64,000 bases of DNA from an uncultured bacterium (GCA_964511015.1 CAZEDX010000014.1:10979-74978), one strand, 5' to 3'; positions 3,240 through 51,669 are shown, counted from the first letter of the stretch. Translations and numbers: made by a program. Notes: generated by a model not told the origin, from the sequence alone.

Positions 3240-3422
3240 TGTCGAAGCCTCCCGTTTCCTCGCGTTTGAGAGGGGCCGCTTTCCCCGGTTCGGCAATCAC
3301 GTTTGTATAGCAGTTCCCCAACCACAAAAATTTTTGTTCGCCTCCAAGCTATCTAACATCTTTTTGCCCGTCAACCAACGAAAGCAGCGCCGGCGGCCGG
3401 TGTTGGCGGGGGTAAATAATAC

Positions 3423-10137: not shown

Positions 10138-10311
10138 CGGGATCTCCTCGTCAAACGGCCTGCGGTTCGGCATTCTAAAGGCGGCTTTTGCGGCTGGCAA
10201 ACCACCCCCGTCCGGTGGCCAGCCGCCGCAAAATCCGTTAATGTCACCCCAACGCGAACCGGCCCGGCCGGGTTCGCGCCGACGAATCAGTGAACATCCC
10301 GGGAGAATGGC

Positions 10312-15222: not shown

Positions 15223-16978
15223 TCCTCGGCCCCTCCCGGTTCTTCGGTGAGGATGAATTCCACACGCCGGTTGCGCTCGCGGCCCTCTTCGGTGTCGTTG
15301 GTCGCGATCGGACGGGTCTTGCCGAAGGCCCGCACTTCCAGGATCTGCGCGTCGATGCCGCGCCTGATCAGGTAGTCGCGCACGGCGTAGCCGCGGCGGC
15401 GCGAAAGTTCGAGGTTGTATTCGTCGCTGCCTTCCGCCGAACAGTGACCTTCGATCTCCACCCGCGTCGGCTTCAACGATTTGATCTGCACGGCGATATC
15501 GTCGAGCGTGGCATTGCTTTCCGGCCGCAGGACCGCGCTGTTCAGATCGAAGAAGATCTGTCCGCGCTTCACCAGCTTCTTGCGCAGGTGCACCGTCGCG
15601 GTGGTGATCTTGTCGGGCGCCACGTCGACCGTAGTCATTACCGCCTCGTGCGCGGCGGCCTCGGCGGTGAAGGTTATGGCGCCCGGTTCGAGCGGCTGGC
15701 TGTACTCGCCGCTTTCCGTGGTGACGGTGTTCTCGCCCGGCTGGCCGGGGTTGAAGATGATCTTCGCCGGCAAGTGCGCGCCGGTGGCGGAGTCAAGCAC
15801 GACGATGTTCAGGCGCGTCGGCGGTTTGTGCAGCACGATCGTCTCGATGGCCACCTGACCCGCGTTGACGTTCACCGACAGCACGCCGGTTTCGTAGTCG
15901 GGCCGCGAGGCGCGCGCGGTGTAGGTGCCGGGCGCCAGGTCGGTCAGCACGAACACGCCCTGCACGGTGCTGCCCATGCGCAGTTCGGGGCCTTCCAGCC
16001 CGATTTCCGCTTCCAACCGCTGGCCGTTTTCGTCCTGCACGACGATGCGCAGATCGCCGGCGCTGGGCGGGGGCGCGGCCACCGGCACCGGCTGGTAGTC
16101 GAGGCCGGCGAAGAGCCGGAAGTCGGGGCTGCCAACGCCGCTGGTCACGCCCGGTCCGCCGCCGGCCAGCAAGCGCAGTCCGCCGCCGAGCGCATAGCGG
16201 CCGACCAGGTCGAGTTCAAGCGGGCTGCCCGCGAAGCGGCGGCCGTTGTCGGATTCATAGGCCTCGCCATGCAGCTCGAGGCTCAGGTTGATGTTTTCCC
16301 ACACGTCGCGCGTCAGCGCCGCGCCGAGCGGGAAGCCGTTGCGCACGCGCGTACCGAGCACGTCGGACCCGCCGCGGTAGTGCCAGCCGCCGTTCAGACC
16401 CAGCCGCACCCAGGCCAGGTCGATTTCGTAGGTCGCCGTCAGACCGGCGGTGACGCGTCCCTCGCCGAGCAAGCGCGCGGCGTTGCCGGTGGGGAAGGTG
16501 ATGAACGGGGTAACCGCCACGCCCATCGGCCAGATGCCTTCTTCGAGCAGGCGTACCTTGGCCGCGAGTCGCAGATCGCCCAGCGCCGCGCCCCACTGCC
16601 GCGTCGTCGCGTCATCCGCATTGCCCAGGTCGCCGAACGAGCGGCCGCGCGTGAGCAGGTGCACCGGCAGGCCCGCGCCGATGCTGACCATGTCGTGCAC
16701 GCCGTAGCCGCCGAACGCGTCGAGCGTGAGCAGACTGTCGAGCACGCCGTTGGTCCGCTCGTTGTCGGTGCGGACCTCGACCGGCGCGTTGGCGTAGCCG
16801 AGCAGCGCCCCGGTCGCCCAAGCGCCCGGCAACAAGGTGCGCGCATCTTCAAAGGTGAGATAGCGTCCGCTGAAGTACGACGGTGTCAGCAGGTGAGCGT
16901 TGAACCCCTCCTGCGCCCAAACCGCCGCGGGCGCCAGCAGACACAGCAACACAAACAACCACAACCGGCGGCGCGGCA
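15219..16978 (-). CDS. OmpA-family outer-membrane protein: beta-barrel + CarboxypepD_reg-like domains + OmpA_C peptidoglycan-binding domain
   Basis: C-terminal OmpA domain (FDLNSAVLRPES...NLELSRRRGYAVRDYL...RNRRVEFIL). GTG start proposed at VPRRRLWLFVLLCLLAPAAVWA with a GGGAGG RBS. The ATG at 17039 has no RBS and no signal peptide. 4-nt overlap with the FG-GAP gene. Confidence 0.75.
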
Positions 16979-17115
16979 CGATATACCTCCCGCTTTCCCC
17001 GGCCGGGGAAACAGCGATTCTCCTTTTCGAGCCATTCAACAGGGTACCGGACGGCCAAACGATGTCAAGAACAAACCGCGAGATATGGCGGTCAGACAGG
17101 TCAAAATCTACCAGA

Positions 17116-17973
17116 TCATGGGGGTAGGTCGTCGGGTTGTAAAAGCTCTTTCAGGCCGAGATTTCGGATTGTATTCACCAGGTCGATCGCCAGTTGGATG
17201 GAACCCTTGTGATTGAGATGGCGGCTAGACCGGAGCCGCAGGATGGCCGGGGCGAAGATCTTGAACACCACGACCGGAACGGTGGCCGTTGCGCCGAGCT
17301 GCCGCAATCGATCCGGCATGCCCACGCTTTTTGGCGTACCGCCGTAAATAATGATCAACGGCACGCGGGCTCGTTCGGCCACCTTCACCATCTGTTGTGT
17401 GGCCGTGTACGTGTCCATGTTTCGCATGGTCGCCGGCGAGGGGCGGTTGATCTCGTAATTCAGAATCTGGGCCAGATGGCTGACCGCCAGCCATGGCCGC
17501 GCCGCATACACGTCGAGCGGAATAGGCGGATCGTCGTCGTTATTGCTGAGCTGGAATACGATCAGCCGCGGCGGCAGTGCGGCACACCACTGCGCTGCCT
17601 GCAAGTAGCTCTGCCAGGCGTTGAAACCGGCCATGTCAAAGTTCATGACGGTGACGGTACCATTCAGGTCTGTTTCCAGAGCCGCCGGAAAGGTCTCGTC
17701 GTTGTTGACGCCTTAGCCGAAGGTCATGGAATCGCCGAAGCACAAGACGAGATGATGGTGTCGCACGCGTGGTTCGACATCGAGCCGGTTGCGACGTTCT
17801 CCCCACGAGCCGATTTGATAGCGCACGATGCGGTGGTCTTTTATCAATGTCGTGTAGTCGCAGCAGTCGGCATACGGTTGGGCGCGCCAGCCCAGCACCG
17901 GATCCCGCATGACCAGCGGACCGATATCGGGCAACAGCAGCGGCACGGCGCAATCGAGCGCAATCAACGCCAC
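17116..17973 (-). pseudogene. SGNH/GDSL-family hydrolase gene interrupted by an in-frame TAA (complement of 17713-17715)
   Basis: Upstream ORF ends ...LVLCFGDSMTFG then stop (block I, GDSxxxG). Same frame continues GVNNDETFP...IVFQLSNNDDD (block III, GxND) to 17116. The hydrolase domain is therefore split by a single stop codon. Confidence 0.6.
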
Positions 17974-18057
17974 GGCGAGGGAGAATGCCGCTTTCCATCG
18001 GGTTTGCAGCCGAGTGGTCCGTCGCTGGATGGCGTCGTTCCTTTCCTTGTGGCGCGG

Positions 18058-19050
18058 TTACACGATGTAGCTGGCCCCCGCTTGCAGCACTTCGGTGCGG
18101 GCCCGGACCTGCCGCTCGATCCGGTCCAGCGCGAAATCACACGAGTCGTGTCCGGACAGCAGCAGGCGTTGCGGCCCCGCCTCGTTCAGGGCGGCGATGG
18201 CCGCGTCGAGATCCGCCACCGTGATCCGCTCCCACCACACCTTGCCGGTGCCGAGTATCTGTTGCAATTGGATGCCGGCGCGGGCGCCGCGCGATTCGGT
18301 CAGCGGAAAATGCAGCCCGCCGGCGAAGGTGTGAATCGGCACGGGCGACAGCCGCCGCACCAGCGCAAACAGCGCTTCGACGGTCTGGTGGCCGCAGCCG
18401 GTCAGCACGAACAACCCGCGGCCTTTGAGCCGCGCGACGATGGCTTGCTCGTCAGTCATCCCCATGAAGCACAACATGCGCGAGAGCGGGCCGGTCGAGG
18501 CGAAGCCGCCGGGCAGCAGTGTTGGCCGCTCGACTACCACCGGCTGCAGACCCGGCGCGTCGCTCGGCGCGGGCAGGTAGCAAGGCGTGCCGGGGCGCAA
18601 GACGATGTCCGGCGGCAGCGTTACCCGTTTGGCGCGGGTGGCGGACAGGCCGCCCATGTGGTCCAGGTGCAGATGCGAGATGAGCACGGCGTCGATCGAA
18701 TTCGCATCGATCGGCAAGCGTTGCCAGTTGTGGGAGAGGGCGGGGCGGTCGGGGCCGAAACCGACGTCCATCAACAGCGTGCCGCGTTCCGAACGCAGCA
18801 GATACGACACGCCGGCGTCGCCCAGGAACCCCGGCTCGTGGCGGTGATCCACCAGCACGGTGAGCTCGACGTGTTCCAACTCCGGCAACTCTAGCGGCGC
18901 GGCGGCGGCGAGACGTTCGTCGTTGCGCCGCGCGGCTTCGCCTTGTCCTTGATAAAACTTGCGCGCCTGCAGCGCCAGCACGGGGGCCAGCACCGGCGAC
19001 GCCGCGGCCATGACCGGCCACCACGCGGGGGAGATGCGAAAACGGGCCAT
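18058..19050 (-). CDS. MBL-fold metallo-hydrolase
   Basis: Start at MARFRISP with AAGGAGG RBS. HxHxDH motif ISHLHLDHMGG. 330 aa. Downstream of, and co-oriented with, the GH13 gene. Confidence 0.75.
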   Translation of the reverse strand: MARFRISPAWWPVMAAASPVLAPVLALQARKFYQGQGEAARRNDERLAAAAPLELPELEHVELTVLVDHRHEPGFLGDAGVSYLLRSERGTLLMDVGFGPDRPALSHNWQRLPIDANSIDAVLISHLHLDHMGGLSATRAKRVTLPPDIVLRPGTPCYLPAPSDAPGLQPVVVERPTLLPGGFASTGPLSRMLCFMGMTDEQAIVARLKGRGLFVLTGCGHQTVEALFALVRRLSPVPIHTFAGGLHFPLTESRGARAGIQLQQILGTGKVWWERITVADLDAAIAALNEAGPQRLLLSGHDSCDFALDRIERQVRARTEVLQAGASYIV

Positions 19051-19067
19051 CGGTATTGCTTTCCTCC

Positions 19068-20783
19068 TTACCCCAGAATCACGAACTGCATCGGCGCCAG
19101 CGGCAACTCGACGAAGAGCGACTTGTTGTTCGGGTCGGGATGCGCCTGGATCGTTACCTCGCCCGTGTCGCCATAGAGGTAGCGCAAGCGGTCGCCGGCC
19201 TGGTGCAGGCCGTAGTCGACGACCACGTGGTCGCAACGCGCGTCGGTGGTCGAGGTATTGAAGGCCACCAGCACTTCCTGGTCGGCCAGGATGCGCGAAA
19301 AGGCCAAGGTGCACGGGTGGCCGGTGGGCAGACCGAAGTCGGTTCCGTTGCCGGAGATCTCGCGGAAGTACATGCGCCCGAAACGCAGCGCCGGCTTCTC
19401 GCGGTTCACCTTGGCGATGGCCGCGATTTCGCGGTAGATGCGGCACTGCGGGTTGAGGTAGTTGCGCGTCGGGTTTTCCAGATCGAACATCGCCTCGCGC
19501 AGATACTCGTCGCCGCCGCCTTCGCCGGCGAAGCCCTGCTCGGTGCCGTAGTAGATGCACGGCGTGCCCAGTGCGCACAGTAGATAACCGATGCCGGCGA
19601 TGACCTGCTCGTCGCACGTCTGCGCCGCGAAACGCATCTTGCGCTGCTGGCCGATCTGATCGTGATTGTCCAGGAACGTGACCAGGTAGCGCCCCAGTTC
19701 GCCGCGGCTGAGGCCCTGTTCCTTCAGCGCCTCGTAGCGCGCGATCAGATTGCCGGGTGGCACGAAGCCCTTGATCACGCCGGGCAGGGTCCAGAACAGC
19801 GGGAAGTCGAGCACCGACGACAGGCCGTAATAGATCGTCTTGTCACCGCGGAAGCCGGCCGTGTTGGGGCCGGTGTAGCGGTGGATGGCGTTATCGCCGG
19901 CGACCAGTTCGCCGTACAGGAAGAACTCGCGCTTGCCCAGCTTGTAGGCGTATTCGCGCATCGCCTGGGCGAAGCGGGCCACGGCCATGTCGCCCATGTG
20001 CTTGACCGCGTCCATGCGGTAGCCGTCGATGTCGGCCTCACGGATCCAGTAGCGGTGCACGGCGATCATGATCTCCTGTGTGACAATACCTTCGGGCGTT
20101 TCGTCGTTGTTCAGTCCCTTGAGGGTGACGAAGTCGCCCCACTGCGTTTCGGGCACCGCGTCCCACGCCCAGGGGCGAATTTGCCCGCGGCGGTGGAAGC
20201 GCGCCGGGTCGCGCAGTTCGATCGGCACCGGATAGTGCGGATCGCGCCATTCGCCGATCTCATATTGGGCGCAGTCGTCGCGGAACCAGACCTCTTCGCC
20301 GTCGCGGTAGCGGAAGACATTGCCCGTGTGGTTGGCCACCGCGTCAAGGAAGACGCGCAGGCCGAGCTGATGCGCGCGGTCCACTAGCGCGATGAGGTCT
20401 TCTTTCGTGCCGAAGCGCGGATCGATGTTCAGGTAGTTGCGCGTCGCATAGCCGTGGTAGCTGCCGCTGTTGCGGTTGGGCGCCTCGTCGTTTTCGAAGA
20501 TCGGGCTCAGCCACACTGCCGTGCAGCCGAGGCCGGCGATGTAGTCGAGGTGCGCGGTCAGCCCCTTGAGCGTGCCGCCGCAGAAGCGCCGCAGTTGGTC
20601 GGGGTTGCCGCTGCCGCGCGAACGCTGCTCGCCGACGACCGGCTGCCGTTTCAAGTCGTCATGGAAGCGATCGACCAGCACGAAGTAGATGAACTCCTCG
20701 CGCCATTCGCGGTCGCACGACCAGTACTTTTTGCCGGGTTTCGGAGACAGATCGATTTCCTTGATGGATCGCGGTCCAGACAT
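19068..20783 (-). CDS. Glycoside hydrolase family 13 (alpha-amylase family) protein, cytoplasmic
   Basis: Start at MSGPRSIKEIDLS. GH13 regions: FIYFVLVDRF; GGTLKGLTAHLDYIAGLGCTAVWLSPIF; VFLDAVANHTG; GYRMDAVKHM; FLYGELV; FLDNHDQ. The ORF-track 767-aa ORF over-extends upstream. Confidence 0.8.
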   Translation of the reverse strand: MSGPRSIKEIDLSPKPGKKYWSCDREWREEFIYFVLVDRFHDDLKRQPVVGEQRSRGSGNPDQLRRFCGGTLKGLTAHLDYIAGLGCTAVWLSPIFENDEAPNRNSGSYHGYATRNYLNIDPRFGTKEDLIALVDRAHQLGLRVFLDAVANHTGNVFRYRDGEEVWFRDDCAQYEIGEWRDPHYPVPIELRDPARFHRRGQIRPWAWDAVPETQWGDFVTLKGLNNDETPEGIVTQEIMIAVHRYWIREADIDGYRMDAVKHMGDMAVARFAQAMREYAYKLGKREFFLYGELVAGDNAIHRYTGPNTAGFRGDKTIYYGLSSVLDFPLFWTLPGVIKGFVPPGNLIARYEALKEQGLSRGELGRYLVTFLDNHDQIGQQRKMRFAAQTCDEQVIAGIGYLLCALGTPCIYYGTEQGFAGEGGGDEYLREAMFDLENPTRNYLNPQCRIYREIAAIAKVNREKPALRFGRMYFREISGNGTDFGLPTGHPCTLAFSRILADQEVLVAFNTSTTDARCDHVVVDYGLHQAGDRLRYLYGDTGEVTIQAHPDPNNKSLFVELPLAPMQFVILG

Positions 20784-21138
20784 GATTGACCCCCCCAATG
20801 GATAGAATATCATTGTATCCCCCCGGGCGGTGAACTTCAATCGTGGGAGAGCGAGCTTTCCCATTCGAACTGGCCGGCTGGTTGGATGTTCTGGACAACG
20901 TGGCGACTCAGGCTGATATCGCCACGATACGGGCCAATCATGGCCGCGCGACTTCCGCATCAAGTTTCGCCGGTCATTGGGGTTGTTACGCGACGGGAAA
21001 CGGGGTCCGGCCTCCGTTTCCTTTTCGGGCGCCGTTTGCCGGCCGCCGCTCCCCTTGACGGCGCAGGCGCATTGAACGAAAAAGACAATATGCGGGGCTG
21101 GCTCAGCCCCTTTGCATTTGGTCAGGCAGGAGCGATAC

Positions 21139-23079
21139 AAATTGCCGGCAAAGCGTCCGCTTAAGATTACCGATACCACCCTCCGCGACGGGCACCAGAG
21201 CGCGCTGGCGACCCGCCTGCGGCTGCGCGACATGGAGCCGGTCGCCGAGTTGCTCGACTCGGTCGGCTTCCACTCGCTCGAGGTGTGGGGCGGCGCGACC
21301 TTCGACGTAGCCCACCGCTTCCTCGGCGAAGACCCGTGGGACCGCCTGCGTTGGATGAAAACCCGCGTCAAGAAGACGCCGCTCCAGATGCTGCTGCGCG
21401 GACAGAACCTGGTGGGCTACCGCAATTACGCCGACGACGTCGTGCGCGCGTTCTGCCACCACGCCGTCGAGTGCGGCATGGACATCTTCCGCGTGTTCGA
21501 CGCGCTCAACGATCCGCGCAACTGCGAGGCCTCGTTCAAGGCGCTGCAGGAAACCGGCGCGCACATCCAGGCGACCATCTGTTTCTCGCTGACCGAGCGG
21601 CGTGTCGGCGGCGAGGTTTTTCATCTCGACTACTACCGGCGCAAGGCGAAGGAATTCGTCGAGCTCGGCGCGCACTCGCTGTGCCTGAAGGACATGGCCG
21701 GCATCCTGTCGCCGGACGACGCCTACCTGCTGGTGCGCGAGCTGAAGAAGATCGTCAAAGTGCCGCTGCACCTGCACACGCACTACACCGCGGGCACCGG
21801 CGGCATCGCGTACTGGAAGGCCATTGAAGCGGGGGTGGATGTCATCGACTGCGCGCTCGCGCCCTTCGCGCTGCGCACCAGTCAGCCGGCGGCGGAACCC
21901 TTCGTCGCCGCGCTCGCCGGCACCGATCGCGATACCGGTCTGAACCTCGATCTGCTGGCCAAGGCGGGCGACTATATCGAGTCGATCGCGCCGAAGTACC
22001 GTCACTTCCTGGACACGTCCAAAATGGCGGTCATCGATACCGGCGTGATCCGCCACCAGATCCCCGGCGGCATGATCTCCAACCTGGTCAATCAGCTCAA
22101 GCAGGCCGACGCGCTCGACCGCTTGCCCGAGGTGTACGCCGAGCTGCCGCGCACGCGAGCCGACCTCGGTTATCCGCCGCTGGTCACGCCGACCAGCCAG
22201 ATTGTCGGCGTGCAGGCGGTAATGAACGTTCTGGGCCGCCACCGCTACGAGATGGTCAGCCAGGAAGTGAAGGACTACTGCTTCGGCCTCTACGGCCGCC
22301 CGCCGGCGCCGATCAACAAGAAGGTGCAGGCCAAGGTGCTCAAGGGCTACGAGCGCGGCGAGAAGCCGATCACCTGCCGCCCGGCCGACGTGCTCGAACC
22401 CGAAATGGACAAGGCCGCCGAGGCGGTCAAGGACCTGGCCAAAGGCGTCGGCGACGTGTTGCTTTACGCGCTGTATCCGCGCACCGGGCTGGCGTTCCTG
22501 CGCTACAAATACGGGCTCGATCCGCAGCCGCCGGGCGAGCCGGCGAAAACGCTGGAAGACGTGCAGCGCGAGGATGCGCTGATCAAGAAGGCGCTGTCCG
22601 GCGAGCTGACCACCAAGACCTACGCCGCCGATCTGAAGAACACGCGCACCTATCGCGTGGCGGTGGACGGCGAGGTGTTCGAAGTGGCCGTGGAGCTGAC
22701 CCCGCCGGTGCCTGGCCCGGCCTCGCGTCCGGCCGCGCCGCCGCCAAGCGCACCGCCAAGCGCTCCCTCGCCGAAGCCGATGCCGACGCCCCACCAGAGC
22801 AACCTCAAGCCCGGGCGCCACAGCGGCATCCGGCGGGTGCAGACGATGGACGAGAACGAATCGTCCGGCACCTCGGTGCTGGCTCCGATGCCGGGCACCG
22901 TCGTGCGCTATCTGGTTGCAGTCGGCGAGACGGTCAAGAAGGGCCAGACGGTTGTCATCCTCGAAGCCATGAAAATGGAAAACGCCTTGCCCGCGCCGGC
23001 CGCCGGCACCGTCGCCGCCCTCGGCCCGCCCCCCGGGGCGAACGTGAAGCGGGGGGAAACCCTGGTGACGTTGGGGTAG
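21139..23079 (+). CDS. Oxaloacetate decarboxylase alpha subunit / pyruvate carboxylase subunit B (carboxyltransferase + biotinyl domain)
   Basis: ITDTTLRDGHQS carboxyltransferase N-terminus and biotinylation site EAMKMEN near the C-terminus. TTG start at 21139 proposed, with AGGAG 9 nt upstream. The ORF-track alternative is TTG at 21112. Confidence 0.85.
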   Translation, partial: KLPAKRPLKITDTTLRDGHQSALATRLRLRDMEPVAELLDSVGFHSLEVWGGATFDVAHRFLGEDPWDRLRWMKTRVKKTPLQMLLRGQNLVGYRNYADDVVRAFCHHAVECGMDIFRVFDALNDPRNCEASFKALQETGAHIQATICFSLTERRVGGEVFHLDYYRRKAKEFVELGAHSLCLKDMAGILSPDDAYLLVRELKKIVKVPLHLHTHYTAGTGGIAYWKAIEAGVDVIDCALAPFALRTSQPAAEPFVAALAGTDRDTGLNLDLLAKAGDYIESIAPKYRHFLDTSKMAVIDTGVIRHQIPGGMISNLVNQLKQADALDRLPEVYAELPRTRADLGYPPLVTPTSQIVGVQAVMNVLGRHRYEMVSQEVKDYCFGLYGRPPAPINKKVQAKVLKGYERGEKPITCRPADVLEPEMDKAAEAVKDLAKGVGDVLLYALYPRTGLAFLRYKYGLDPQPPGEPAKTLEDVQREDALIKKALSGELTTKTYAADLKNTRTYRVAVDGEVFEVAVELTPPVPGPASRPAAPPPSAPPSAPSPKPMPTPHQSNLKPGRHSGIRRVQTMDENESSGTSVLAPMPGTVVRYLVAVGETVKKGQTVVILEAMKMENALPAPAAGTVAALGPPPGANVKRGETLVTLG

Positions 23080-23082
23080 GGG
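23008..23082 (+). repeat. Direct repeat copy A: last ~23 codons plus stop of the decarboxylase gene
   Basis: ~88% identical to 26134-26208. The differences are mostly synonymous (GETLVTLG stop versus GESLVTLD stop). Confidence 0.85.
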
Positions 23083-23446
23083 CGAAAGCCACCCATCTGA
23101 AGCGGCGGAACACGTTCATCCCGAATTCGGGACGCACATTCCCTTTAACAACTTGAAAAAAAAGTATCATCGGCATCGGAATTAGCAAAGTAACGTACTA
23201 CGCAACCATCTTGGAGGGAGGTTATCTTGGCTATTTACTATGTGGACAACGACTAGTCGGACGATTCGGGCAACGGCACTTTCCGGGCCAGCGTACTTCG
23301 ATAGGGGATTGAGTTGTTTTCGATCCTGGGAGAACACATGGTTATTTTTGCAATTTGGGAGGCGGCTGGAACATGTTGAACGAAGCCCGTCAAAAACAAT
23401 TCCGAATTTGGGACGAGAGTGAATCAATAACAAATCGTTTGGAGAA

Positions 23447-24295
23447 TTGAAGAGGGATTTCATGTGGCTAGTGGTTCCCCTTGGCCTTCTCCTCGTGACG
23501 TTGATAGCGACCGAATTGTCAGCTTCTTGGGACGTATACCATTTCAACAACGATAGCTACGAAATCGATTCGCGCTGCACGGCCAGCAACAACCTTCCGG
23601 GCGTAGCAATGCTGAGTCGCTATCGCGCCGAGATGGCCGACTGGGGATGGAGCAATTCCATCTTCTACCCCGTCCAGCATCCGATGTTCGTTGATCCCGA
23701 CCTATTTAGCGGTGGACAAGATTACGAATACATTGATGACGCGAGGATTGCCTGGATGACTGGGCACGGTGGTACGTCGGGGACGATTCCGGCTTTCTTT
23801 CGAATGAAATTGCAAACGTTCGAAAGCAGCGTCCTTGAGTCATGCTACTTGGCGCCCGAATTCACCATGCGGCTTGGCGACCAAGGGATGCACCTCGATT
23901 GGTTGCATGTCATTTCTTGCCATAGCTTGCAAACCGACGACAACTCATATCAGTCGTGGAGATCGGTTTTCACCGGAGTACACCAGATTCACGGGTTTCA
24001 TGGCCTGGCGTGGTTTAGGAGTGCGAATAGCAATCTGGCGTATGCGTACGAGGATTTTGCGCACGACTCTCACAGCGCTGCGCTTGCGTTAGAATGGGTG
24101 GCTGAACTATTTTTCCCGGAAGAATTCGAGGATCCATTCGGATCGGGGATATATCATGACCAATGTCCCGTAGCATATGTTGGCCGGGACACCGTCGCTT
24201 CTGCGTTGACGATCTTGAATAACGAGAAATACCCAATTCCTGACCGCGTGCCACCAAGCCTGACATATTCCGACGAATTCACACCAACTCACTAG
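23447..24295 (+). CDS. Hypothetical secreted protein (lower-GC island)
   Basis: Signal peptide MKRDFMWLVVPLGLLLVTLIATELSAS. 282 aa. Local GC visibly lower than flanks. No recognisable domain. Confidence 0.55.
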   Translation: MKRDFMWLVVPLGLLLVTLIATELSASWDVYHFNNDSYEIDSRCTASNNLPGVAMLSRYRAEMADWGWSNSIFYPVQHPMFVDPDLFSGGQDYEYIDDARIAWMTGHGGTSGTIPAFFRMKLQTFESSVLESCYLAPEFTMRLGDQGMHLDWLHVISCHSLQTDDNSYQSWRSVFTGVHQIHGFHGLAWFRSANSNLAYAYEDFAHDSHSAALALEWVAELFFPEEFEDPFGSGIYHDQCPVAYVGRDTVASALTILNNEKYPIPDRVPPSLTYSDEFTPTH

Positions 24296-24322
24296 TACCA
24301 ACTTGACTGTATCAGCAACCCT

Positions 24323-25054
24323 GTGGTTCTCCTGTACAACGACGCGGACACGCTCGGCCTAGATATCTCTGACGCCATTCTGGAAAAGGACCATTCCGGT
24401 TGGTCGATACTCACTAATGACCGTTTCGAGATCCGTCGCAGGGAAACCAGCGGCCATTTTACGTTCGTAGACAAAACGATTTCAGACCTGAAACATTTCC
24501 CAGAGGGCGAAGAGCCGGTGACTGAAGAAGACCTGACAAACAAATCGATCGATTTGTTGCAGTCGCTCGACGTTCCTTCAGACGAAATCCACGACATTTC
24601 GGTGAAGCGGATCATCGATCAAGCAGAGGATGAATTCGGCTTCGATGTCGGAGATCGTTTAACGGCCGCTTTTCTGGTGTATGTCGACCGCGTGATAGCA
24701 AACACACCGGTCGAAGGATCGTACGCCAAACTGTTGTTCACGACCGAAGGGCGCCTGATAAAAGTGAGCACTAGGTGGCGGAACGTGACCGGGCAAGCAA
24801 TTGACATATTGCCGATCATTGAAGAAGAACTACTTCGCAATACCGCATTGGCTGTTTCTGCCAAAAGCCTTCTTCATGGTAAGGTTGACGTGTTCTATGG
24901 TGGGTATGCCTATGTCGAGGAATTTGGTGAAGACGCGGTCGAACAAAAAACCTTTGACCTGCATTTCGTTTTTCGTTACGCGACGGCTGATTCGCCATTG
25001 ATGTCTGGCGTATTGAATGCGGTGATGGAATCCGCGCTTGCGGGAGGAGTCTGA
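24323..25054 (+). CDS. Hypothetical protein (island)
   Basis: 243-aa acidic ORF, with start/stop overlap with the next gene (ATGA at 25051-25054). Confidence 0.5.
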   Translation: MVLLYNDADTLGLDISDAILEKDHSGWSILTNDRFEIRRRETSGHFTFVDKTISDLKHFPEGEEPVTEEDLTNKSIDLLQSLDVPSDEIHDISVKRIIDQAEDEFGFDVGDRLTAAFLVYVDRVIANTPVEGSYAKLLFTTEGRLIKVSTRWRNVTGQAIDILPIIEEELLRNTALAVSAKSLLHGKVDVFYGGYAYVEEFGEDAVEQKTFDLHFVFRYATADSPLMSGVLNAVMESALAGGV

Positions 25055-25539
25055 TGAAAGCCCGGTGCAGCCTCATCCTTCTAGGTCTCGTACTTATGAT
25101 TGGACAAGAAGCCATCGGCAACCCGATCCAACTTGGCGTCATCGAGGACGCGTTCCAGTTCAAACAGAACGTGTGCCTGGTCTTCCAAGGCTATTTTTCC
25201 AGTGGACCCTACCGTTTGGAGCGTACGATGGACAGTCAGACAATACGCATCATGGACGACTGGGAGATACCGGCGGAAGATCCGCTGAAGGAATGCGGGG
25301 ACTACCGTCTCTATATCTTCGAAGACGCATGCGTACCAGCCGGCCAAGCGTTGTACACCCTGTTCCAGAAGATGCCCAGCGGCTGGGACAATGCCGGTTC
25401 CGAAACCATTCAAGTTGAAGACAGCGGTGAGGAATGCGGCAACGACGACGACTGCGCGGCGCTGATCGATCCGGACGAATACCTGCCGTGTAATTTGGAC
25501 GACGACGACAACGACAACGATGACGGGTGCGGGTGTTGA
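25054..25539 (+). CDS. Small secreted protein with poly-Asp/Asn tail ending GCGC (island copy of the tail family)
   Basis: Signal peptide MKARCSLILLGLVLMIGQEAIG. Tail ...CNLDDDDNDNDDGCGC then TGA. Confidence 0.65.
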   Translation: MKARCSLILLGLVLMIGQEAIGNPIQLGVIEDAFQFKQNVCLVFQGYFSSGPYRLERTMDSQTIRIMDDWEIPAEDPLKECGDYRLYIFEDACVPAGQALYTLFQKMPSGWDNAGSETIQVEDSGEECGNDDDCAALIDPDEYLPCNLDDDDNDNDDGCGC

Positions 25540-25548
25540 GGAAGCAAC

Positions 25549-25908
25549 GTGTCTGAATGGAATCCCATCGCCCTCTGGTTTGCCTTCTTCGTTTTCGGCC
25601 AAATGATCGAGACCCCAATCTACGTTGCGTTCGCGCGCGGCCGGGCTCCATGGTGGCGTGGGGCCTTGGGCGGCTTTGCCTGCACCACAATTACCCACCC
25701 GCTGCTTTGGTTCGTCTGGCCCACTGTCGTGCACCCGTGGCTTGCCTATGCAATCAGCGGCGAATTGATCACCTTCGCCGTCGAGTCGATCGTGTTCTAT
25801 CTTGTTGTCCGTTCGGTCTCTCTTGCTCGCGCGGCGTCGTCGTCGTTTGCCGCCAACCTAGCCAGCCTGCTGGCTGGGATAATAGTGCAGTGCGTGTTTC
25901 AATTATAA
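25549..25908 (+). CDS. Small polytopic membrane protein (3-4 TM), function unknown
   Basis: 119 aa, hydrophobic helices. Starts 10 nt after the GCGC-tail gene. Confidence 0.5.
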   Translation: MSEWNPIALWFAFFVFGQMIETPIYVAFARGRAPWWRGALGGFACTTITHPLLWFVWPTVVHPWLAYAISGELITFAVESIVFYLVVRSVSLARAASSSFAANLASLLAGIIVQCVFQL

Positions 25909-26133
25909 AATTTCAACATAGCCGGTTAGTCTCGTCCGAAATCGGGATTTGTCTTGGACAGTGATCACTCCGGAGCCCAAGTCCGTTTGCGACCTGCGCG
26001 CCGTGGCCGTCGATGTTGATGGCGACGTCTTCGCTGTCGGCGGGGCGGAAAACTCCTCGCGCATGATCACGGTCAAATACTCCCCCACCGGCGACGAGTT
26101 ATGGGTGGCCGAGTTCGACGCGGACAACCCATG

Positions 26134-26208
26134 ACCGTCGCCGCCCTCGGCCCGCCCCCCGGCGCGAACGTGAAGCGGGGCGAGAGCTTAGTCACGCTGG
26201 ATTAGGGG
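26134..26208 (+). repeat. Direct repeat copy B (displaced duplicate of the decarboxylase 3' end); att-like scar
   Basis: Encodes TVAALGPPPGANVKRGESLVTLD then stop, with no upstream gene body. Preceded by a high-GC SBBP-like beta-propeller fragment (25949-26134). Confidence 0.8.
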
Positions 26209-26981
26209 ACCGGGTTTCGGATATGGAAGAACGGGTCGCGGTACTGTGTGAATAACCACAAACCAATACCAATGTCTCCGTTCCTGTCGATCGTGCCTAT
26301 CCTGTGAAGCCTGTCCAAAAAGACGTTGTTGCCGAAAAACGCCACGTTTTCGTACAACCACGTCGCGCAAGTGTTTGATTTTAAAGACCCCCCTTTTCAG
26401 TTCATCGCCAAAAACCGCGCAAAACGAGTCGTTTTCGGCAGGCAAGTGCTTGTTTTCGTTAGGTCCGATTTCCGTCAAAAGAGCATTTTTCAACCGTGGT
26501 TTTTGCCGATTTCGTGCGTGCGGAGACGCGCCGCTGTAAGAGCGAAAATGCACATTTTGAATGACGGCTCGAAGGGGCTGAAATGGCCGTTCGAAATGCT
26601 GTGACAGATTTCACAAGGCGATGGATTTTACATCGGGGCCTGTTATCCCGACTGAAGCCCGAAGCGAACGCGACGGGCGAGCGGAAAGGATCCCTTCCCA
26701 GACCTGATCCCTTCCGCAAAATGGTTGCTGCGCAACTCAAGGAAGGAACCTCTGCTCGGCTCGCTCGTCGAACTCGTGCGCCTCGGTCGGAGTGACAATC
26801 GCCCCTCGGCTGCGCTCGAGCTATGCATATCCCCTTCGCTCACGCGTCCGACGACGTGGAGCACAAGGCCGGGTTCGACCTGCTGTGGATGACGTCGTTT
26901 CTGGCGGATCGTCAGTCGGCATGCGATTTGAACTGTCGGTTGACCTGATGGTATTTTGAGCCGTTGTAACAGAGGTAACCC

Positions 26982-27725
26982 GTGGGAAGGTCGATGCACG
27001 TCGTCTGGCAAACCTGGCACGAGCCCATCGGCGCGGCTGTCGCGTTGAACGAAGACCCCGATGGCGACGGCACGGCGGTGACGATGAACATTAGAATGCC
27101 GGGCCAGTACTTCGACGCGGAGACCGGCCTCCACTACAACTGGCACCGGTACTACGATCCGGCGGTGGGGAGGTATGTGCAGGCGGAGGTGCCACACCAC
27201 GATCAATCAGTGATCAATCCGTTCATCTATACGGGCAACAATCCGTTGAATTGGGCAGACAAGAGCGGATGGAGAGTACAACCAGGCTATGATTGCGTTA
27301 CCTTTTTGAAAGCCGGCAATCCCGATTCCTTCTGGGCGCTGTTTCCTCTTCTAAGTGACCCAACTCTTGATGCTTATGCCTGCAGTTGGGATTGTCCAAA
27401 AGGACTCACCGTCACTGTTTGCGATGACATCTATCCAAATAATCGACCTGATCCGGCTGCTTCTGCACTAAGATTACCCGACGGAAGTTGTGAGTTGAAC
27501 CTCAGCCGCGATTTCTTCCGGGAACGCACCAATCTAGATGAAGTCGAACGGTCTTGTCTAATCATGCACGAACAATGTCACCTATCAAAGTACACTAGGG
27601 AGGACACGGAGTGTTGGGCGGATGCGGTCCAAGCCGGGTGTCTTACCAGCCGCGTCGAAGTGTTTCAGGAACGCTTGGCTAAATGCCTAATTGGTGGTCC
27701 ACCGGGTCCTCCTTGTGTGCGTTAG
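26982..27725 (+). CDS. Orphan RHS-repeat core C-terminus fused to a variable C-terminal toxin domain
   Basis: PGQYFDAETGLHYNWHRYYDPAVGRYVQAEV...NPFIYTGNNPLNWADKSG matches the end of the RHS repeat-associated core domain. It is followed by a ~150-aa Cys-rich unique domain. The ORF opens just after a stop, with no upstream RHS body. Confidence 0.7.
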   Translation: MGRSMHVVWQTWHEPIGAAVALNEDPDGDGTAVTMNIRMPGQYFDAETGLHYNWHRYYDPAVGRYVQAEVPHHDQSVINPFIYTGNNPLNWADKSGWRVQPGYDCVTFLKAGNPDSFWALFPLLSDPTLDAYACSWDCPKGLTVTVCDDIYPNNRPDPAASALRLPDGSCELNLSRDFFRERTNLDEVERSCLIMHEQCHLSKYTREDTECWADAVQAGCLTSRVEVFQERLAKCLIGGPPGPPCVR

Positions 27726-27753
27726 TCGGTGGAGAACGTGCGAATGAGCAATC

Positions 27754-28251
27754 ATGATGACTGACTTACGAGTTCTAGTCCGCCATCTCTGTGAATCGGC
27801 GTGCTGGGGTCCCTCGGAACCGGCGGCGTGGTTCTGTCGGTATTTTATCCGAAACTATGGCTGGCAACTGGTGCTCGCGGGGCTGGCGACCGGAGTGTTT
27901 GTGCATACGCTGGTCTGCACCGGGTGGATAGTTGGCAGGCGCCAACGTCCGTATGTTCGATGGCACTATTTCATTCTCAAACTGGTGACCTGGCTGGTTG
28001 TGCCCTACGGAGCGACCAATGTCTTTGGCTTTCTTGTTCCGGACCAACATCGTCCGTGGTTTGGTCCGAACAATGAGCTGCTGATTTGCGCTGTCTATCT
28101 CGCGGTCAGGGTGCCGGTCGTCTTGTTCGTCCTGCGCAAAAAGGATGTGGTTCCTTTCGAGTTCGCGGCGGCGATGGTCGAGCCATTTCTGATGTTGTCG
28201 ATCATGAAATGGATCATTGCCAATGTCTTCCCGGCGTGGGGTCTGACCTAG
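27754..28251 (+). CDS. Small membrane protein, putative RHS-toxin immunity protein
   Basis: 165 aa, 4 TM. Immediately downstream of the RHS C-terminal gene. Paralog of the next gene. Confidence 0.55.
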   Translation: MMTDLRVLVRHLCESACWGPSEPAAWFCRYFIRNYGWQLVLAGLATGVFVHTLVCTGWIVGRRQRPYVRWHYFILKLVTWLVVPYGATNVFGFLVPDQHRPWFGPNNELLICAVYLAVRVPVVLFVLRKKDVVPFEFAAAMVEPFLMLSIMKWIIANVFPAWGLT

Positions 28252-28275
28252 CGGATGCTGTTCAAGGAGTGACCT

Positions 28276-28713
28276 TTGTTCGATTGGCTATATTTTTGGT
28301 TCATTCGTAGCGACGGTTGGCAAGCCATGGTCGCCGGTGTGATGGGTGGTCTGGCGGTCCAGGCATTGGTCAACGGTATGTGGCGGGCTTACCACCGCAG
28401 TTGGCCGAAAATCGGGTGCGTTTTCTATTTTGCCAAGCTGACAACTTGGCTTCTTGTCCCGTACAACCTTCTCTCCTGGTACGCGTTGGGGATTGGGACC
28501 ATTGCGAACTACTACGATGGCTACCGAGGTTTCTTTCTTATCCTCCAATACGCACTCATTCGAATTCCTGTGCTAGCGTTCGTTGCGAAGCGAAAAGACT
28601 TTGTTGTTTTCGATCTGATTTCCATCGTGTTCGAAGCGGCAATCGTTCATGCCTTGTACGGTTGGATACTGGTTCACATCTATCACTTCAACGTCGCGTC
28701 TTTGATGCAGTGA
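28276..28713 (+). CDS. Small membrane protein, paralog of 27754-28251 (second immunity-like gene)
   Basis: Shared blocks KL[VT]TWL[VL]VPY and RKKDVVPFEF / KRKDFVVFDL. Same TM topology. Confidence 0.55.
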   Translation: MFDWLYFWFIRSDGWQAMVAGVMGGLAVQALVNGMWRAYHRSWPKIGCVFYFAKLTTWLLVPYNLLSWYALGIGTIANYYDGYRGFFLILQYALIRIPVLAFVAKRKDFVVFDLISIVFEAAIVHALYGWILVHIYHFNVASLMQ

Positions 28714-28991
28714 TTGCCTAGCGGAACTTCTGACTTCCTGACCACCCACCTGGCCGACGGGGTGGGGGAGATCATCGACCCGCTGGCGGCGCGGTAGGGG
28801 GCGCCCACCGATCTTGCCGCTTTTTCGGCCCCCGGGGGGCTTGCCGTAAGCCCTCGGGATGTGTACCTTTCGCACGCCCGGAGAGGTCTAAACTTTCCAC
28901 CGAGAAGGGGTGTCGGATAGGCACCGGGTGAGGTGGAACGTAGGGATTTTCCAGCAACGGCCGACGGGCGAACGAGAAGGAATAGCGGACG

Positions 28992-30470
28992 ATGAAGACA
29001 AAAGCTTTGTATGTGTTTGTGTTATTGGTGGTTTTCGTTGCATCGGCAGCGGTGGTCGGCGGCTGCGGTGGGAAGTCGGAAAAGCCGAAAGACCTGAAGC
29101 CCACCCCCGAAGTGGTCGAGGGCGAGGGCGGCCCGCAGATCCCCGGCGCGACCGGCTATTCGGACATTGCCGAACGGGCGGTGAAAAGCGTGGTCAATAT
29201 TTCCTCGACCAAGGTGATCCGCCAGCAGGGCCAGCCCAATCCGCTGTTCAATGACCCTGTGTTTCGGCGCTTTTTCGGCAACCCGTCATTTGGCGGCCCG
29301 CGCGAGCGGCGCGAGCGCGCACTGGGTTCGGGCGTGATCGTCAGCAAGGACGGCTACATCCTGACCAACAACCACATGGTCGCCGACGCGACCAAGGTAA
29401 TGGTGCAGTTCAATGACGGCCGCGAGGTCGAGGCGAAAATCGTCGGCACCGACGAGAAGACCGACCTGGCCGTGATTAAGGTGGAAGAGAAAGAACTCGA
29501 ACCGCTCCCGCTAGGCGATTCCGACCAGCTTCGCCTGGGCGAGGTCGTGCTGGCTATCGGCAATCCGTTCGGCCTGGGCAACACGGTGACCATGGGCATC
29601 GTCAGCGCCAAGGGCCGCACGAACATGGACATTCTCGACTACGAGGACTTCATTCAGACCGACGCGGCGATCAACGTCGGCAACTCCGGCGGCGCGCTGA
29701 TAAACACGCGCGGCCAGCTCGTCGGCATCAACACCGCGATCTTCTCGCGCAGCGGCGGTTCGGAAGGCGTCGGCTTCGCCATTCCGATCAACCTGGCGCG
29801 TTCGGTGATGAACGACCTGGTGCAGTACGGCGAAGTCCGGCGCGGCTACGTCGGCATCTTCGTGCAAGACGTCAATCCGGGCCTGGCCGAACACTTCGGG
29901 CTCGACAAGCCGACCGGCGCGCTGGTCAGCGATGTGGCGGCCAACAGCCCCGCGGCCGAGGGCGGCCTGCAGCGCGGCGACATCATTCTCGAATACAACG
30001 GCAAAGAAGTGCCGAACGCGACGCAGTTGCGCAACACCGTGGCGCAAACCGAAATCGGCAGTGAGGTGGCGCTGGTGGTGCTGCGCAACAAGAACAAGAT
30101 CGATCTGAAGGTGAAGGTGGCCCGCCGTCCGGCCGATGAGGCGACCGCCAACCGCCAGCCGCAGATCGAACCGCCGTCGAACGCCAACGTGCGCGTTGGC
30201 TTCGACGTGACCGATCTGTCGCCGTTCATCATTCAGCGCTTCCAGTTGCCGCCGAACCTGCGCGGCGTGGTGGTGACCAACGTGGTGCCGGACAGCCCCG
30301 CCGCCGAGGCCGGGCTGGAAACGCGCGACGTGATCACCGAAGTGAACGGCCGCCCGGTCAACGACGGCCGCGAGTTCTCGCAGATGCTCAAGAACGCCGG
30401 CAAGCATGCCGTGCTGCTGGTCTACCGCGAAGGCGGCACGATCTACGTCGATCTGCCGCTGGCGCAGTAA
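28992..30470 (+). CDS. degP: DegP/HtrA-family periplasmic serine endoprotease with two PDZ domains
   Basis: Trypsin-like domain with catalytic block GNSGGALIN and two PDZ domains. Signal/lipobox MKTKALYVFVLLVVFVASAAVVGGC. Confidence 0.9.
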   Translation: MKTKALYVFVLLVVFVASAAVVGGCGGKSEKPKDLKPTPEVVEGEGGPQIPGATGYSDIAERAVKSVVNISSTKVIRQQGQPNPLFNDPVFRRFFGNPSFGGPRERRERALGSGVIVSKDGYILTNNHMVADATKVMVQFNDGREVEAKIVGTDEKTDLAVIKVEEKELEPLPLGDSDQLRLGEVVLAIGNPFGLGNTVTMGIVSAKGRTNMDILDYEDFIQTDAAINVGNSGGALINTRGQLVGINTAIFSRSGGSEGVGFAIPINLARSVMNDLVQYGEVRRGYVGIFVQDVNPGLAEHFGLDKPTGALVSDVAANSPAAEGGLQRGDIILEYNGKEVPNATQLRNTVAQTEIGSEVALVVLRNKNKIDLKVKVARRPADEATANRQPQIEPPSNANVRVGFDVTDLSPFIIQRFQLPPNLRGVVVTNVVPDSPAAEAGLETRDVITEVNGRPVNDGREFSQMLKNAGKHAVLLVYREGGTIYVDLPLAQ

Positions 30471-51582: not shown

Positions 51583-51669
51583 CGTCGGCCGGCCGGGCCG
51601 CATTTTCCATTTTTTTCGCTTCATTCTATGATAGCCGCCGGTGTTTCCCCGCTCGCAAAGGAGAACCCC

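Follow-up and report, generated by a model that had tools for sequence, protein, structure and literature searches.

In this uncultured bacterium the housekeeping genes pycB and htrA, which are as a rule neighbours, are separated by two consecutive islands of DNA, and between the islands the terminal 75 nt of pycB occur once more (Table 1). Coordinates refer to the window, that is, the whole 64-kb stretch (64,000 nucleotides) that was analysed. The nearest named relative of the lineage is Candidatus Lernaella. Island 1 consists of a non-coding leader, a four-gene cassette (the DUF6345 cassette) and a fragment resembling beta-propeller repeats; island 2, which begins after a ~108-nt segment adjoining the second repeat copy, holds filler, a fragment of an rhs gene and two genes for membrane proteins.

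Table 1. Features of the pycB–htrA locus, in window coordinates.
Feature	Coordinates	Strand	Remarks
pycB (oadA-type carboxyltransferase), intact target gene	21142..23079	+	Pfam HMGL-like, PYC_OADA, Biotin_lipoyl; C-terminal biotinyl domain
Repeat copy A	23008..23082	+	last 24 codons of pycB, stop and GGG
Island 1 leader, non-coding	23083..23446	+	
Imperfect 30-nt inverted repeat, left arm	23389..23418		24/30; borderline significance by own estimate
Cassette gene 1, secreted DUF6345 protein	23447..24295	+	Pfam DUF6345, E 1e-15
Cassette gene 2, 5'-truncated	24296..25054	+	38% identity to L087 gene 2
Cassette gene 3, secreted protein	25054..25539	+	ends in poly-Asp, then GCGC and stop
Cassette gene 4, 119-aa membrane protein	25549..25908	+	
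Imperfect 30-nt inverted repeat, right arm	25930..25959		includes motif CCGAAATCGGGA
Beta-propeller-repeat-like gene, internal fragment	25961..26133	+	cut at both ends
Repeat copy B, displaced older pycB 3' end	26134..26208	+	24-codon relic without gene body
~108-nt post-B segment	26209..26316	+	also after the pycB stop in L001, 89% identity
Filler, non-coding or degraded	26317..26981		divergence from L001 begins here
rhs fragment, 5'-truncated	26982..27725	+	TIGR03696 Rhs_assc_core E 9e-20, residues 33-96
Putative immunity-like membrane protein 1, 165 aa	27754..28251	+	30% identical paralogue of next gene
Putative immunity-like membrane protein 2, 145 aa	28276..28713	+	
Right border and native htrA upstream region	28714..28991	+	GC rises at ~28740
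htrA/degQ-type serine protease, trypsin-PDZ-PDZ	28992..30470	+	directly after pycB in relatives

An earlier note on this DNA had called the first gene an oxaloacetate decarboxylase beginning at 21139. The gene is indeed oadA-like, but homologues of its product carry the name pyruvate carboxylase subunit B; and since the product in the public record has 645 residues, the start is the TTG at 21142. The stretch from 23.1 to 28.75 kb is compositionally foreign. Its GC content (0.535 for 23083–28750) compares with 0.633 in the rest of the window, where the lowest value of any 5.7-kb span is 0.585; GC3 is 0.57–0.70 in the island genes and 0.75–0.90 in the flanking genes; and tetranucleotide distance – a k-mer profile being one of the checks the note had proposed – peaks across 22–30 kb (0.30–0.42 vs. 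0.14–0.26 elsewhere). Thus the drop in GC that had been described from 23100 to ~28750 is real, but it is not uniform: the propeller-like fragment (0.62), copy B with the adjoining 108 nt (0.61) and the core part of the rhs fragment (0.60) are all host-like.

Gene content of the islands

The leader of island 1 contains a perfect palindrome, TCCCGAATTCGGGA, at 23119–23132, of which a second motif copy lies at 23402–23413. At 23110–23140 Rfam gives a match to glutamine-II RNA that stays below threshold (22 bits vs. 33). The four genes of the cassette occur in the same order in a low-GC contig of an unrelated genome (L087), where they do not adjoin pycB; this shared order suggests that the cassette is a transferable unit. 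Gene 1 is 56% identical to its L087 homologue and ~17 C-terminal residues shorter. Gene 2 has lost its signal peptide and ~33 residues: the alignment begins at residue 34 of the L087 protein, and homology reaches back, in the same frame, to the stop codon of gene 1. The frame of the propeller-like fragment stops at a TGA which includes the first nucleotide of copy B; the label of SBBP propeller previously given to it holds as a resemblance only, there being no Pfam match to 25961–26133 and no paralogue within the window. Pfam searches at lax thresholds gave nothing for cassette genes 2–4, the propeller-like fragment, the toxin domain or the membrane proteins, and PDB sequence searches with the cargo were empty. 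A single-sequence AlphaFold model of the DUF6345 protein reached a pLDDT of 35, and a metagenome search with an alignment of DUF6345 proteins returned two short, distant contigs that offer no gene context.

The rhs fragment of island 2 comprises the last ~95 residues of an Rhs core and a C-terminal domain of ~150 residues with an HEQCH motif, for which one homologue was found (P0245). Stop codons lie upstream, homology to P0245 starts at about codon 5, and there is no credible start. The fragment had been described as an orphan RHS toxin, which is apt for its combination of core end and variable C-terminal domain; there is no full-length rhs gene upstream, that position being occupied by pycB, and no other Rhs-like sequence in the 64-kb window. 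The two paralogous membrane proteins downstream match no known family and are putatively immunity-like. An identical copy of the 145-aa protein, together with the same right junction, is present in an independent read assembly (L095, a 1.1-kb contig, 100%); it is the only match among the window proteins looked up exactly, the pycB, DUF6345, HtrA and gene 3 products having none. The missing 5' end of cassette gene 2 and the fragmentary state of the rhs and propeller-like genes show that the cargo has decayed.

Domains of integrases, excisionases, relaxases or transposases (Pfam, NCBIfam) were found neither in the island nor among the 57 ORFs scanned across the 64-kb window (the earlier note, too, had seen no integrase), and the window has no tRNA gene that might serve as an integration target.

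The repeated pycB tail

Copies A and B are identical at 65 of 75 nt (87%), and in a blastn search of copy A against the whole window copy B is the sole real match (E = 1.1e-21; all others have E of at least 0.14): the 75-bp duplication that had been reported at ~88% identity is thus real and unique within the window. Both copies translate in frame as the end of a biotinyl domain (TVAALGPPPGANVKRGETLVTLG and stop in copy A, TVAALGPPPGANVKRGESLVTLD and stop in copy B). Eight codons have changed, six of them synonymously, which bears out the previous description of the changes as mostly synonymous and indicates that each of the tails has functioned as a genuine end of a gene. The differences are unevenly placed. 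One mismatch falls in the first 47 nt, which the copies have in common, and nine in the last 28 nt (Fisher p 0.0004), which in copy A form a replacement (“surrogate”) tail; the longest exact match is 29 nt. By comparison, the divergence of either copy from the tail of a sister strain (L001) is even along its length. The mosaic arrangement of the A/B differences fits a single crossover inside the 47-nt block, while later gene conversion between the copies could be an alternative source. The reading frame of pycB stays open to the normal end of the biotinyl domain, so that the replacement end restores the target gene.

No third copy was found at the right border of the foreign stretch. The sequence at 28779–28800, which shares TAGGGG with the repeat, was rejected as a candidate, local alignments being no better than those of shuffled sequences (p 0.25–0.72). 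Scanning the 29-nt core of the repeat against viral contigs gave 0 matches, and 89 other pycB loci hold no second example of a tail duplication. Two of these loci (L067 and L072) have tandem biotinyl domains internal to the gene.

The locus in related genomes

In four relatives, whose proteins are 66–70% identical, pycB is followed by htrA after 119–190 bp (L002, L005 and L007, which are independent of one another) or 1.06 kb (L090); a scan of the genome collection gave, among the matches listed, none closer than 66%. This adjacency – the empty site to which the earlier note had proposed an alignment – indicates that ~5.9 kb has been inserted here, and the relatives do not share the present arrangement with a paralogous second copy, the scenario that had been named as contrary to insertion. 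The sister strain L001, which is 97.75% identical at the DNA level over 8.27 kb, is more informative about copy B: its pycB runs into a B-type tail and then into the ~108-nt segment, and island 1 is missing. This identifies copy B as the older gene end, now displaced, and not as a paralogue. Since the L001 tail differs by 16–19% from A and from B alike, B is ancestral in arrangement and not in exact sequence.

In this lineage the ~108-nt segment probably belongs to pycB as its native 3' flank, judging from its place in both strains. As a candidate for a known RNA it was rejected (no Rfam family; a two-sequence fold without covariation), and a 25-mer from it had 0 matches in a scan of JGI metagenome contigs. 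Beyond 26316 the two strains differ, and the L001 contig ends 267 bp past the pycB stop; a search for the HtrA orthologue of that strain found none, only an 82% relative on a 2.5-kb contig with a four-helix-bundle gene upstream. The content of the spot between pycB and htrA differs among close strains and relatives (L001, L088, L090). Because the junction at B is also found without island 1, and the sequence beyond 26316 is not the same in the two strains, the tandem accretion that the note had offered as one possibility agrees with the data.

The body of pycB is also informative. Relative to L001 it is ~99.5% identical except in patches of ~17% divergence at 21783–22100 and from 22986 onward, a pattern which shows the gene to be a mosaic produced by homologous recombination.

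Origin of the islet

The islet is an ordinary, decayed and tandemly accreted one at a variable pycB–htrA junction. We propose, with a probability of about 0.55, that a circle of ~3.1 kb was inserted in the manner of Campbell on top of an older layer. According to this proposal the junction is a variable spot into which foreign DNA came on two or more occasions. The older layer (~26317 to ~28740), with its broken rhs toxin end and two immunity-like genes, would have come to lie downstream of the ~108-nt flank that follows the original pycB tail. Afterwards, a DNA circle carrying the leader, the four-gene cassette, the propeller-like fragment and a pycB tail of its own would have undergone one single crossover with the chromosome, inside the 47-nt block that opens the 75-nt tail of the gene. 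The gene would thereby have acquired a new 28-nt end, still encoding a proper terminus of the biotinyl domain, and its old 75-nt end would have been stranded 3.1 kb downstream; the cargo has since decayed, and the islet would now be immobile. The recombinase may have been a site-specific integrase, since lost or acting in trans, or host homologous recombination may have used the 47-nt identity; given the homologous-recombination mosaicism of pycB, the route without integrase is about equally likely. In this account the circle, the sequence of events and the enzyme are inferred, whereas the insertion, the duplication, the displaced tail, the mosaic, the decay and the lack of recombinase genes are direct results. 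Weighing against it are the lack of mobility domains among the ORFs scanned, the lack of another tail duplication in the 89 other pycB loci, and the absence of the core from the viral contigs and of the 108-nt segment from the JGI contigs searched. Site-specific integration, as the earlier note read the locus, accordingly stands as an insertion into the 3' end of a gene with a working replacement tail, and not as the act of an integrase: the arm adjoining copy B on the left consists of a truncated gene fragment of host-like character, with no recognisable element end, and the joint there looks like an illegitimate one rather than an evolved attachment site.

A linear import from another strain is a tenable though not probable alternative. 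Here the donor's pycB end (tail A), followed by leader, cassette and a portion of the neighbouring propeller-like gene, would have replaced recipient DNA through a homologous crossover inside pycB and an illegitimate joint 75 nt before the recipient stop, that is, by homology-facilitated illegitimate recombination and with no mobile element. The ~17% patches in an otherwise ~99.5% identical pycB, the absence of mobility genes, the abrupt joint beside a truncated gene fragment of host-like GC, and the likeness of tail A, whose changes are mainly synonymous, to a true pycB allele all fit such an event. A donor tail should, however, differ from B over all 75 nt, whereas 46 of 47 positions are identical before 9 of 28 differ; for the mosaic to arise, moreover, the illegitimate joint would have to lie left of the homologous crossover, an order that a linear double exchange cannot produce, and a donor with such an arrangement was not found. 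It is decidedly unlikely that the cassette alone moved into DNA already present, as a non-autonomous transposon-like unit between the 30-nt inverted repeats, with the tail duplication having a separate cause. These repeats are the longest inverted pair in the region and bracket exactly the four genes, every exact match to CCGAAWTYGGGA in the window falls inside island 1, and the cassette recurs in the unrelated L087 genome; yet the arms agree at 24 of 30 positions only (by our own estimate, a chance expectation of ~0.05), there are no flanking target-site duplications and no other copies within the window, the L087 cassette lacks comparable terminal repeats, and the 75-nt repeat is left unexplained. 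The motif shared by the arms is palindromic and may therefore be an operator-like site.

Two further explanations concern copy B itself. It is very unlikely to be what remains of a paralogous biotinyl-domain gene, or of a pycB copy that arose by local tandem duplication and then lost its body: biotinyl domains do duplicate, as the internal tandem copies mentioned above attest, but the 108 nt after B match the flank of the single pycB in L001, the relatives hold one pycB directly before htrA, and the window holds no other pycB-like sequence, so that the idea is largely refuted. An assembly chimera, in which two strain variants of the locus were joined through their common tail sequence, would suit the metagenomic source of the contig and the break in L001 267 bp past the stop, which is as expected for a strain-variable spot. 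We nevertheless regard it as highly improbable: the longest exact A/B match (29 nt) is, in our judgement, too short for an assembler to stitch, the joint of the propeller-like fragment with copy B needs reads covering it, and the right junction is reproduced at 100% in the independent assembly.

A wider though unlikely reading is that the pycB tail is a docking site for small recombinase-free cassettes, each bringing a replacement gene end (“tail-swap” mobility). Circles may pass from strain to strain, leaving and re-entering the chromosome solely through the 47-nt identity or with the help of a recombinase whose gene lies elsewhere; the three tails in two near-identical strains (A, B and that of L001) and the bracketed DUF6345 cassette may be traces of it. 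Such mobility, here of a housekeeping gene's end, would have a parallel in the C-terminal displacement of polymorphic toxin loci.

The finding otherwise follows a well-known pattern and demonstrates neither an active mobile element nor a new mechanism. It extends gene-end displacement, familiar for many years from coliphage relics, to an uncultured lineage that has hardly been studied, adds the biotinyl-domain end of pycB as a new target, and marks the pycB–htrA junction as a strain-variable spot in this lineage. For annotation, the 75-nt relic should be recorded as a fragment of a pseudogene, and both cassette gene 2 and the rhs piece as truncated genes.

Island 2 is like the orphan rhs-CT/rhsI modules of Enterobacteriaceae in that a startless Rhs-core end with a variable C-terminal domain is followed by small genes (PMC3967940). 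Unlike those modules, which lie downstream of a full-length rhs gene, the fragment stands behind a metabolic gene, and what follows it here is the pair of paralogous membrane proteins with a putative immunity role. By analogy, the signature of the islet as a whole resembles that of e14 in icd of E. coli K-12. There, according to PMC13626634 (citing Hill et al. 1989), e14 – like phage 21 – inserts into the final codons of a gene for a housekeeping enzyme, provides a substitute 3' end that differs mostly by synonymous changes and in a few conservatively replaced residues, and leaves the former end (icdC) as a short remnant beyond the insert. Unlike e14, a ~15-kb prophage relic that excises after SOS induction, the insert described here is 3.1 kb long. 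In addition, e14 encodes its own integrase, whereas here a recombinase is absent and the arm beside the relic is a broken gene. Integrase-free islets are also known from hot spots between conserved core genes, where they are swapped by homologous recombination in the flanks. The present locus is like these in its syntenic core-gene position, its strain-variable content, the recombination tracts in its flank and its lack of mobility genes; replacement mediated by flanks, however, proceeds without duplication of a gene end, whereas here there is the additional 75-nt repeat.

The pycB–htrA junction

The gene upstream of the insert, which ends at 23079, carries HMGL-like, PYC_OADA and Biotin_lipoyl domains and has homologues named pyruvate carboxylase subunit B (pycB); its product in the public record is 645 aa long, a length that puts the start codon at TTG 21142. 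The first gene past the low-GC stretch (htrA) encodes an HtrA/DegQ-type protease with a trypsin-PDZ-PDZ architecture. The closest named relative for both is Candidatus Lernaella stagnicola (phylum Lernaellota; 64% and 50% identity), which puts the uncultured source organism within that lineage or next to it. In four independent relatives htrA lies downstream of, and in the same orientation as, a pycB 66–70% identical to that of the window. The empty site was looked for in relatives and is seen in three (L002, L005 and L007), where 119–190 bp separate the two genes; the gap is 1.06 kb, with two small ORFs, in the fourth (L090), and 5,912 bp in the window. Judged by these junctions, the stretch between pycB and htrA in the window is an insertion. 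In a further relative (L088/L089, HtrA 82% identical), htrA is preceded by a four-helix-bundle gene and short repeats: given these contents and those of the L090 gap, the junction is variable within the clade. The repeats (L088 228–400, between the four-helix-bundle gene and htrA) are tandem-like CCAGTTGTCCAGTTGA units followed by many AACCGG/ATAACCGG units.

The drop in GC past pycB described in the earlier note is borne out. GC content of 23083–28750 is 0.535, compared to 0.633 for the remainder of the window and a minimum of 0.585 for any 5.7-kb window elsewhere; tetranucleotide distance to the average of the window is highest, at 0.30–0.42, over 22–30 kb (elsewhere 0.14–0.26), and GC3 is 0.57–0.70 in island ORFs and 0.75–0.90 in flanking genes.

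A displaced pycB end

The two copies of the pycB end, A and B, share 65 of 75 nucleotides. Both are in frame and encode the end of the biotinyl domain (TVAALGPPPGANVKRGETLVTLG and TVAALGPPPGANVKRGESLVTLD, each followed by a stop); six of the eight codons that differ are synonymous, in line with the ~88% identity and mostly synonymous changes noted earlier. When copy A was compared to the whole 64-kb window (blastn) the sole match was copy B (E = 1.1e-21), with no further copies (remaining matches E of at least 0.14). A candidate third copy at the right border (28779–28800) was no better than chance.

Contig L001 (NCBI GCA_020047475.1) is 97.75% identical to window positions 14812–23082, across 8.27 kb, and is thus a sister strain. 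Right after its pycB stop lies a segment matching window 26205–26313 (the ~108 nt after copy B; 89% identity), with no match to the sequence after copy A; in L001, therefore, pycB, tail and 108-nt flank follow one another and island 1 is absent. Were copy B the relic of a paralogue, this post-B-type segment would not be expected behind the L001 pycB: that reading is unlikely, and copy B is, on this arrangement, a displaced gene end. Beyond the ~108 nt the two sequences diverge, and L001 stops 267 bp past the pycB stop, as expected of a strain-variable spot. Straight after that stop (L001 8254–8282) is a 15-nt tandem duplication (GGGGACCGGGGAATC GGGGACCGGG), single-copy in the window's post-B segment.

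Mismatches between A and B are clustered, with 1/47 in the first part and 9/28 in the last (Fisher p = 0.0004), whereas differences of either copy from L001 are spread evenly along the tail. The simplest reading is that one crossover, or a subsequent conversion, was limited to the 47-nt block, and that the distal 28 nt of A came with the insert while those of B are the older end. The L001 tail is a third version of the sequence, with 81% identity to A and 84% to B. Near-identity of the L001 and window pycB genes has three exceptions: an indel of 12 nt, the final ~97 nt (from 22986 on, with 17 differences) and a ~300-nt patch at 21783–22100. The pycB end and its flank behave as an exchangeable, recombining module. 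The patch differs at 53 positions (~17% divergence) in a gene otherwise almost identical, and is clearly a homologous-recombination tract from a diverged allele.

Contents of the two layers

Features of the pycB–htrA stretch and five host genes elsewhere (window coordinates)
Feature	Position (strand)	Description
Copy A	23008–23082	pycB end
Island 1	23083–26133	between copies A and B
Leader	 	non-coding, 364 nt, start of island 1
CCGAAWTYGGGA sites	23119–23132, 23402–23413, 25936–25947	near-palindromic
Cassette	23447–25908	four co-oriented genes
Gene 1	 	secreted DUF6345 protein
Gene 2	 	243-aa protein
Gene 3	25054–25539 (+)	secreted, poly-Asp and GCGC end
Gene 4	 	119-aa membrane protein
Beta-propeller-repeat-like gene	 	internal fragment, 57 codons, after cassette; TGA overlaps first base of copy B
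Copy B	26134–26208	pycB end
Older layer	~26317 to ~28740	 
rhs ORF	26982–27725	 
Rhs C-terminal domain	27255–27722	~150 aa
htrA	28992–30470	protease
Poly-Asp-(S/G)GCGC host proteins	1215–3296 (-), 5435–7714 (-), 7918–10881 (-), 38213–40249 (-), 51628–53745 (+)	 

The four cassette genes recur in the same order (56, 38, 40 and 36% identity) in L087, a low-GC Logan contig in which they do not adjoin pycB; the cassette is thus a transferable unit. It is conserved between one 63%-GC genome and one low-GC genome (L087 629–3379). The copy in the window is damaged. The match between gene 2 and the corresponding L087 gene starts at residue 34 of the L087 protein and extends, in the same frame, to the stop codon of gene 1; gene 2 has lost its signal peptide and gene 1 its ~17 C-terminal residues. 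The gene 2 type is a secreted protein of ~270 aa. Invariant motifs of DUF6345 (MTGHG and VxSCHS) resemble putative His/Cys catalytic pairs. The four genes lie between the arms of an imperfect inverted repeat of 30 nt (24/30), with no target duplication and no equivalent repeat in L087. The motif CCGAAWTYGGGA (at its best TCCCGAATTCGGGA) has no exact match in the window outside island 1, and two of its sites lie within the inverted repeat. Repeat and motif are unexplained and not counted as evidence for transposition. The propeller-like fragment is host-like in GC (0.62); its earlier SBBP label found no confirmation in Pfam.

Gene 3 ends in DDGCGC and its L087 homologue (2451–2975) in DDDGGCCG. 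Five large secreted host proteins, a subtilase and a C25/PorU-like peptidase among them, have long poly-Asp and then exactly (S/G)GCGC before the stop. No C-terminal sorting-signal model (Pfam, NCBIfam) matched this tail, which looks like a lineage-specific C-terminal tag.

The first 665 nt of the older layer hold no credible ORF. Residues 33–96 of the rhs ORF, which has stop codons just upstream, match the Rhs repeat-associated core end (TIGR03696, E 9e-20). The C-terminal domain is very rare: a search of 1.84 billion representative proteins gave a single real homologue (39% identity), which is an Rhs fragment whose core end is nearly identical. Its HEQCH motif, being of HExxH form, suggests a metallopeptidase-type toxin. 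Next come two small membrane proteins, paralogues with 30% identity between them.

Origin of the insert and known counterparts

The best-supported account has two steps. An older variable islet would first have lain downstream of the native pycB tail and its 108-nt flank; later, a ~3.1-kb circle with a pycB-tail homologue would have entered by a single recombination inside the 47-nt block, so that pycB regained an intact ORF through a new 28-nt end and its old end stayed behind as a relic. We infer that the mosaic topology is the product of a circular donor and one crossover (Campbell-type). The main rival is linear import with one illegitimate joint; the A/B mosaic would then need a homologous crossover to the right of that joint, which should be impossible in a linear double exchange. 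An assembly chimera is unlikely, the right junction into htrA being identical base for base in L095, an independent read assembly.

For the second step of the two-step account, two drivers are about equally likely. The classical signature, known from e14 in icd and its icdC relic, would fit a site-specific recombinase that has been lost or that acted in trans. Host homologous recombination on short identity would fit the lack of a recombinase gene, the demonstrable recombination mosaic of pycB, and an arm left of copy B that is a broken, host-like gene and not an element end. No integrase, excisionase, resolvase, transposase or relaxase was found in any island ORF or in the total of 57 ORFs scanned across the whole window (Pfam, NCBIfam), and no tRNA gene in the window. 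Of the site-specific integration previously proposed, an insertion at the 3' end of the gene that displaced its tail is supported by the relatives' junctions and L001, and tandem accretion is supported too; for an integrase-driven event the scans gave no support.

We know of no report of the 3' end of pycB as an insertion target. The islet, now decayed, is a further example of a known pattern, from a lineage that has received little study. Its rhs fragment and two membrane proteins are like orphan rhs-CT/immunity modules as described (PMC3967940), although, unlike those, a full-length rhs gene is absent from the 64-kb window. The pycB insert with its displaced tail resembles e14 in icd, which leaves the icdC relic (PMC13626634).
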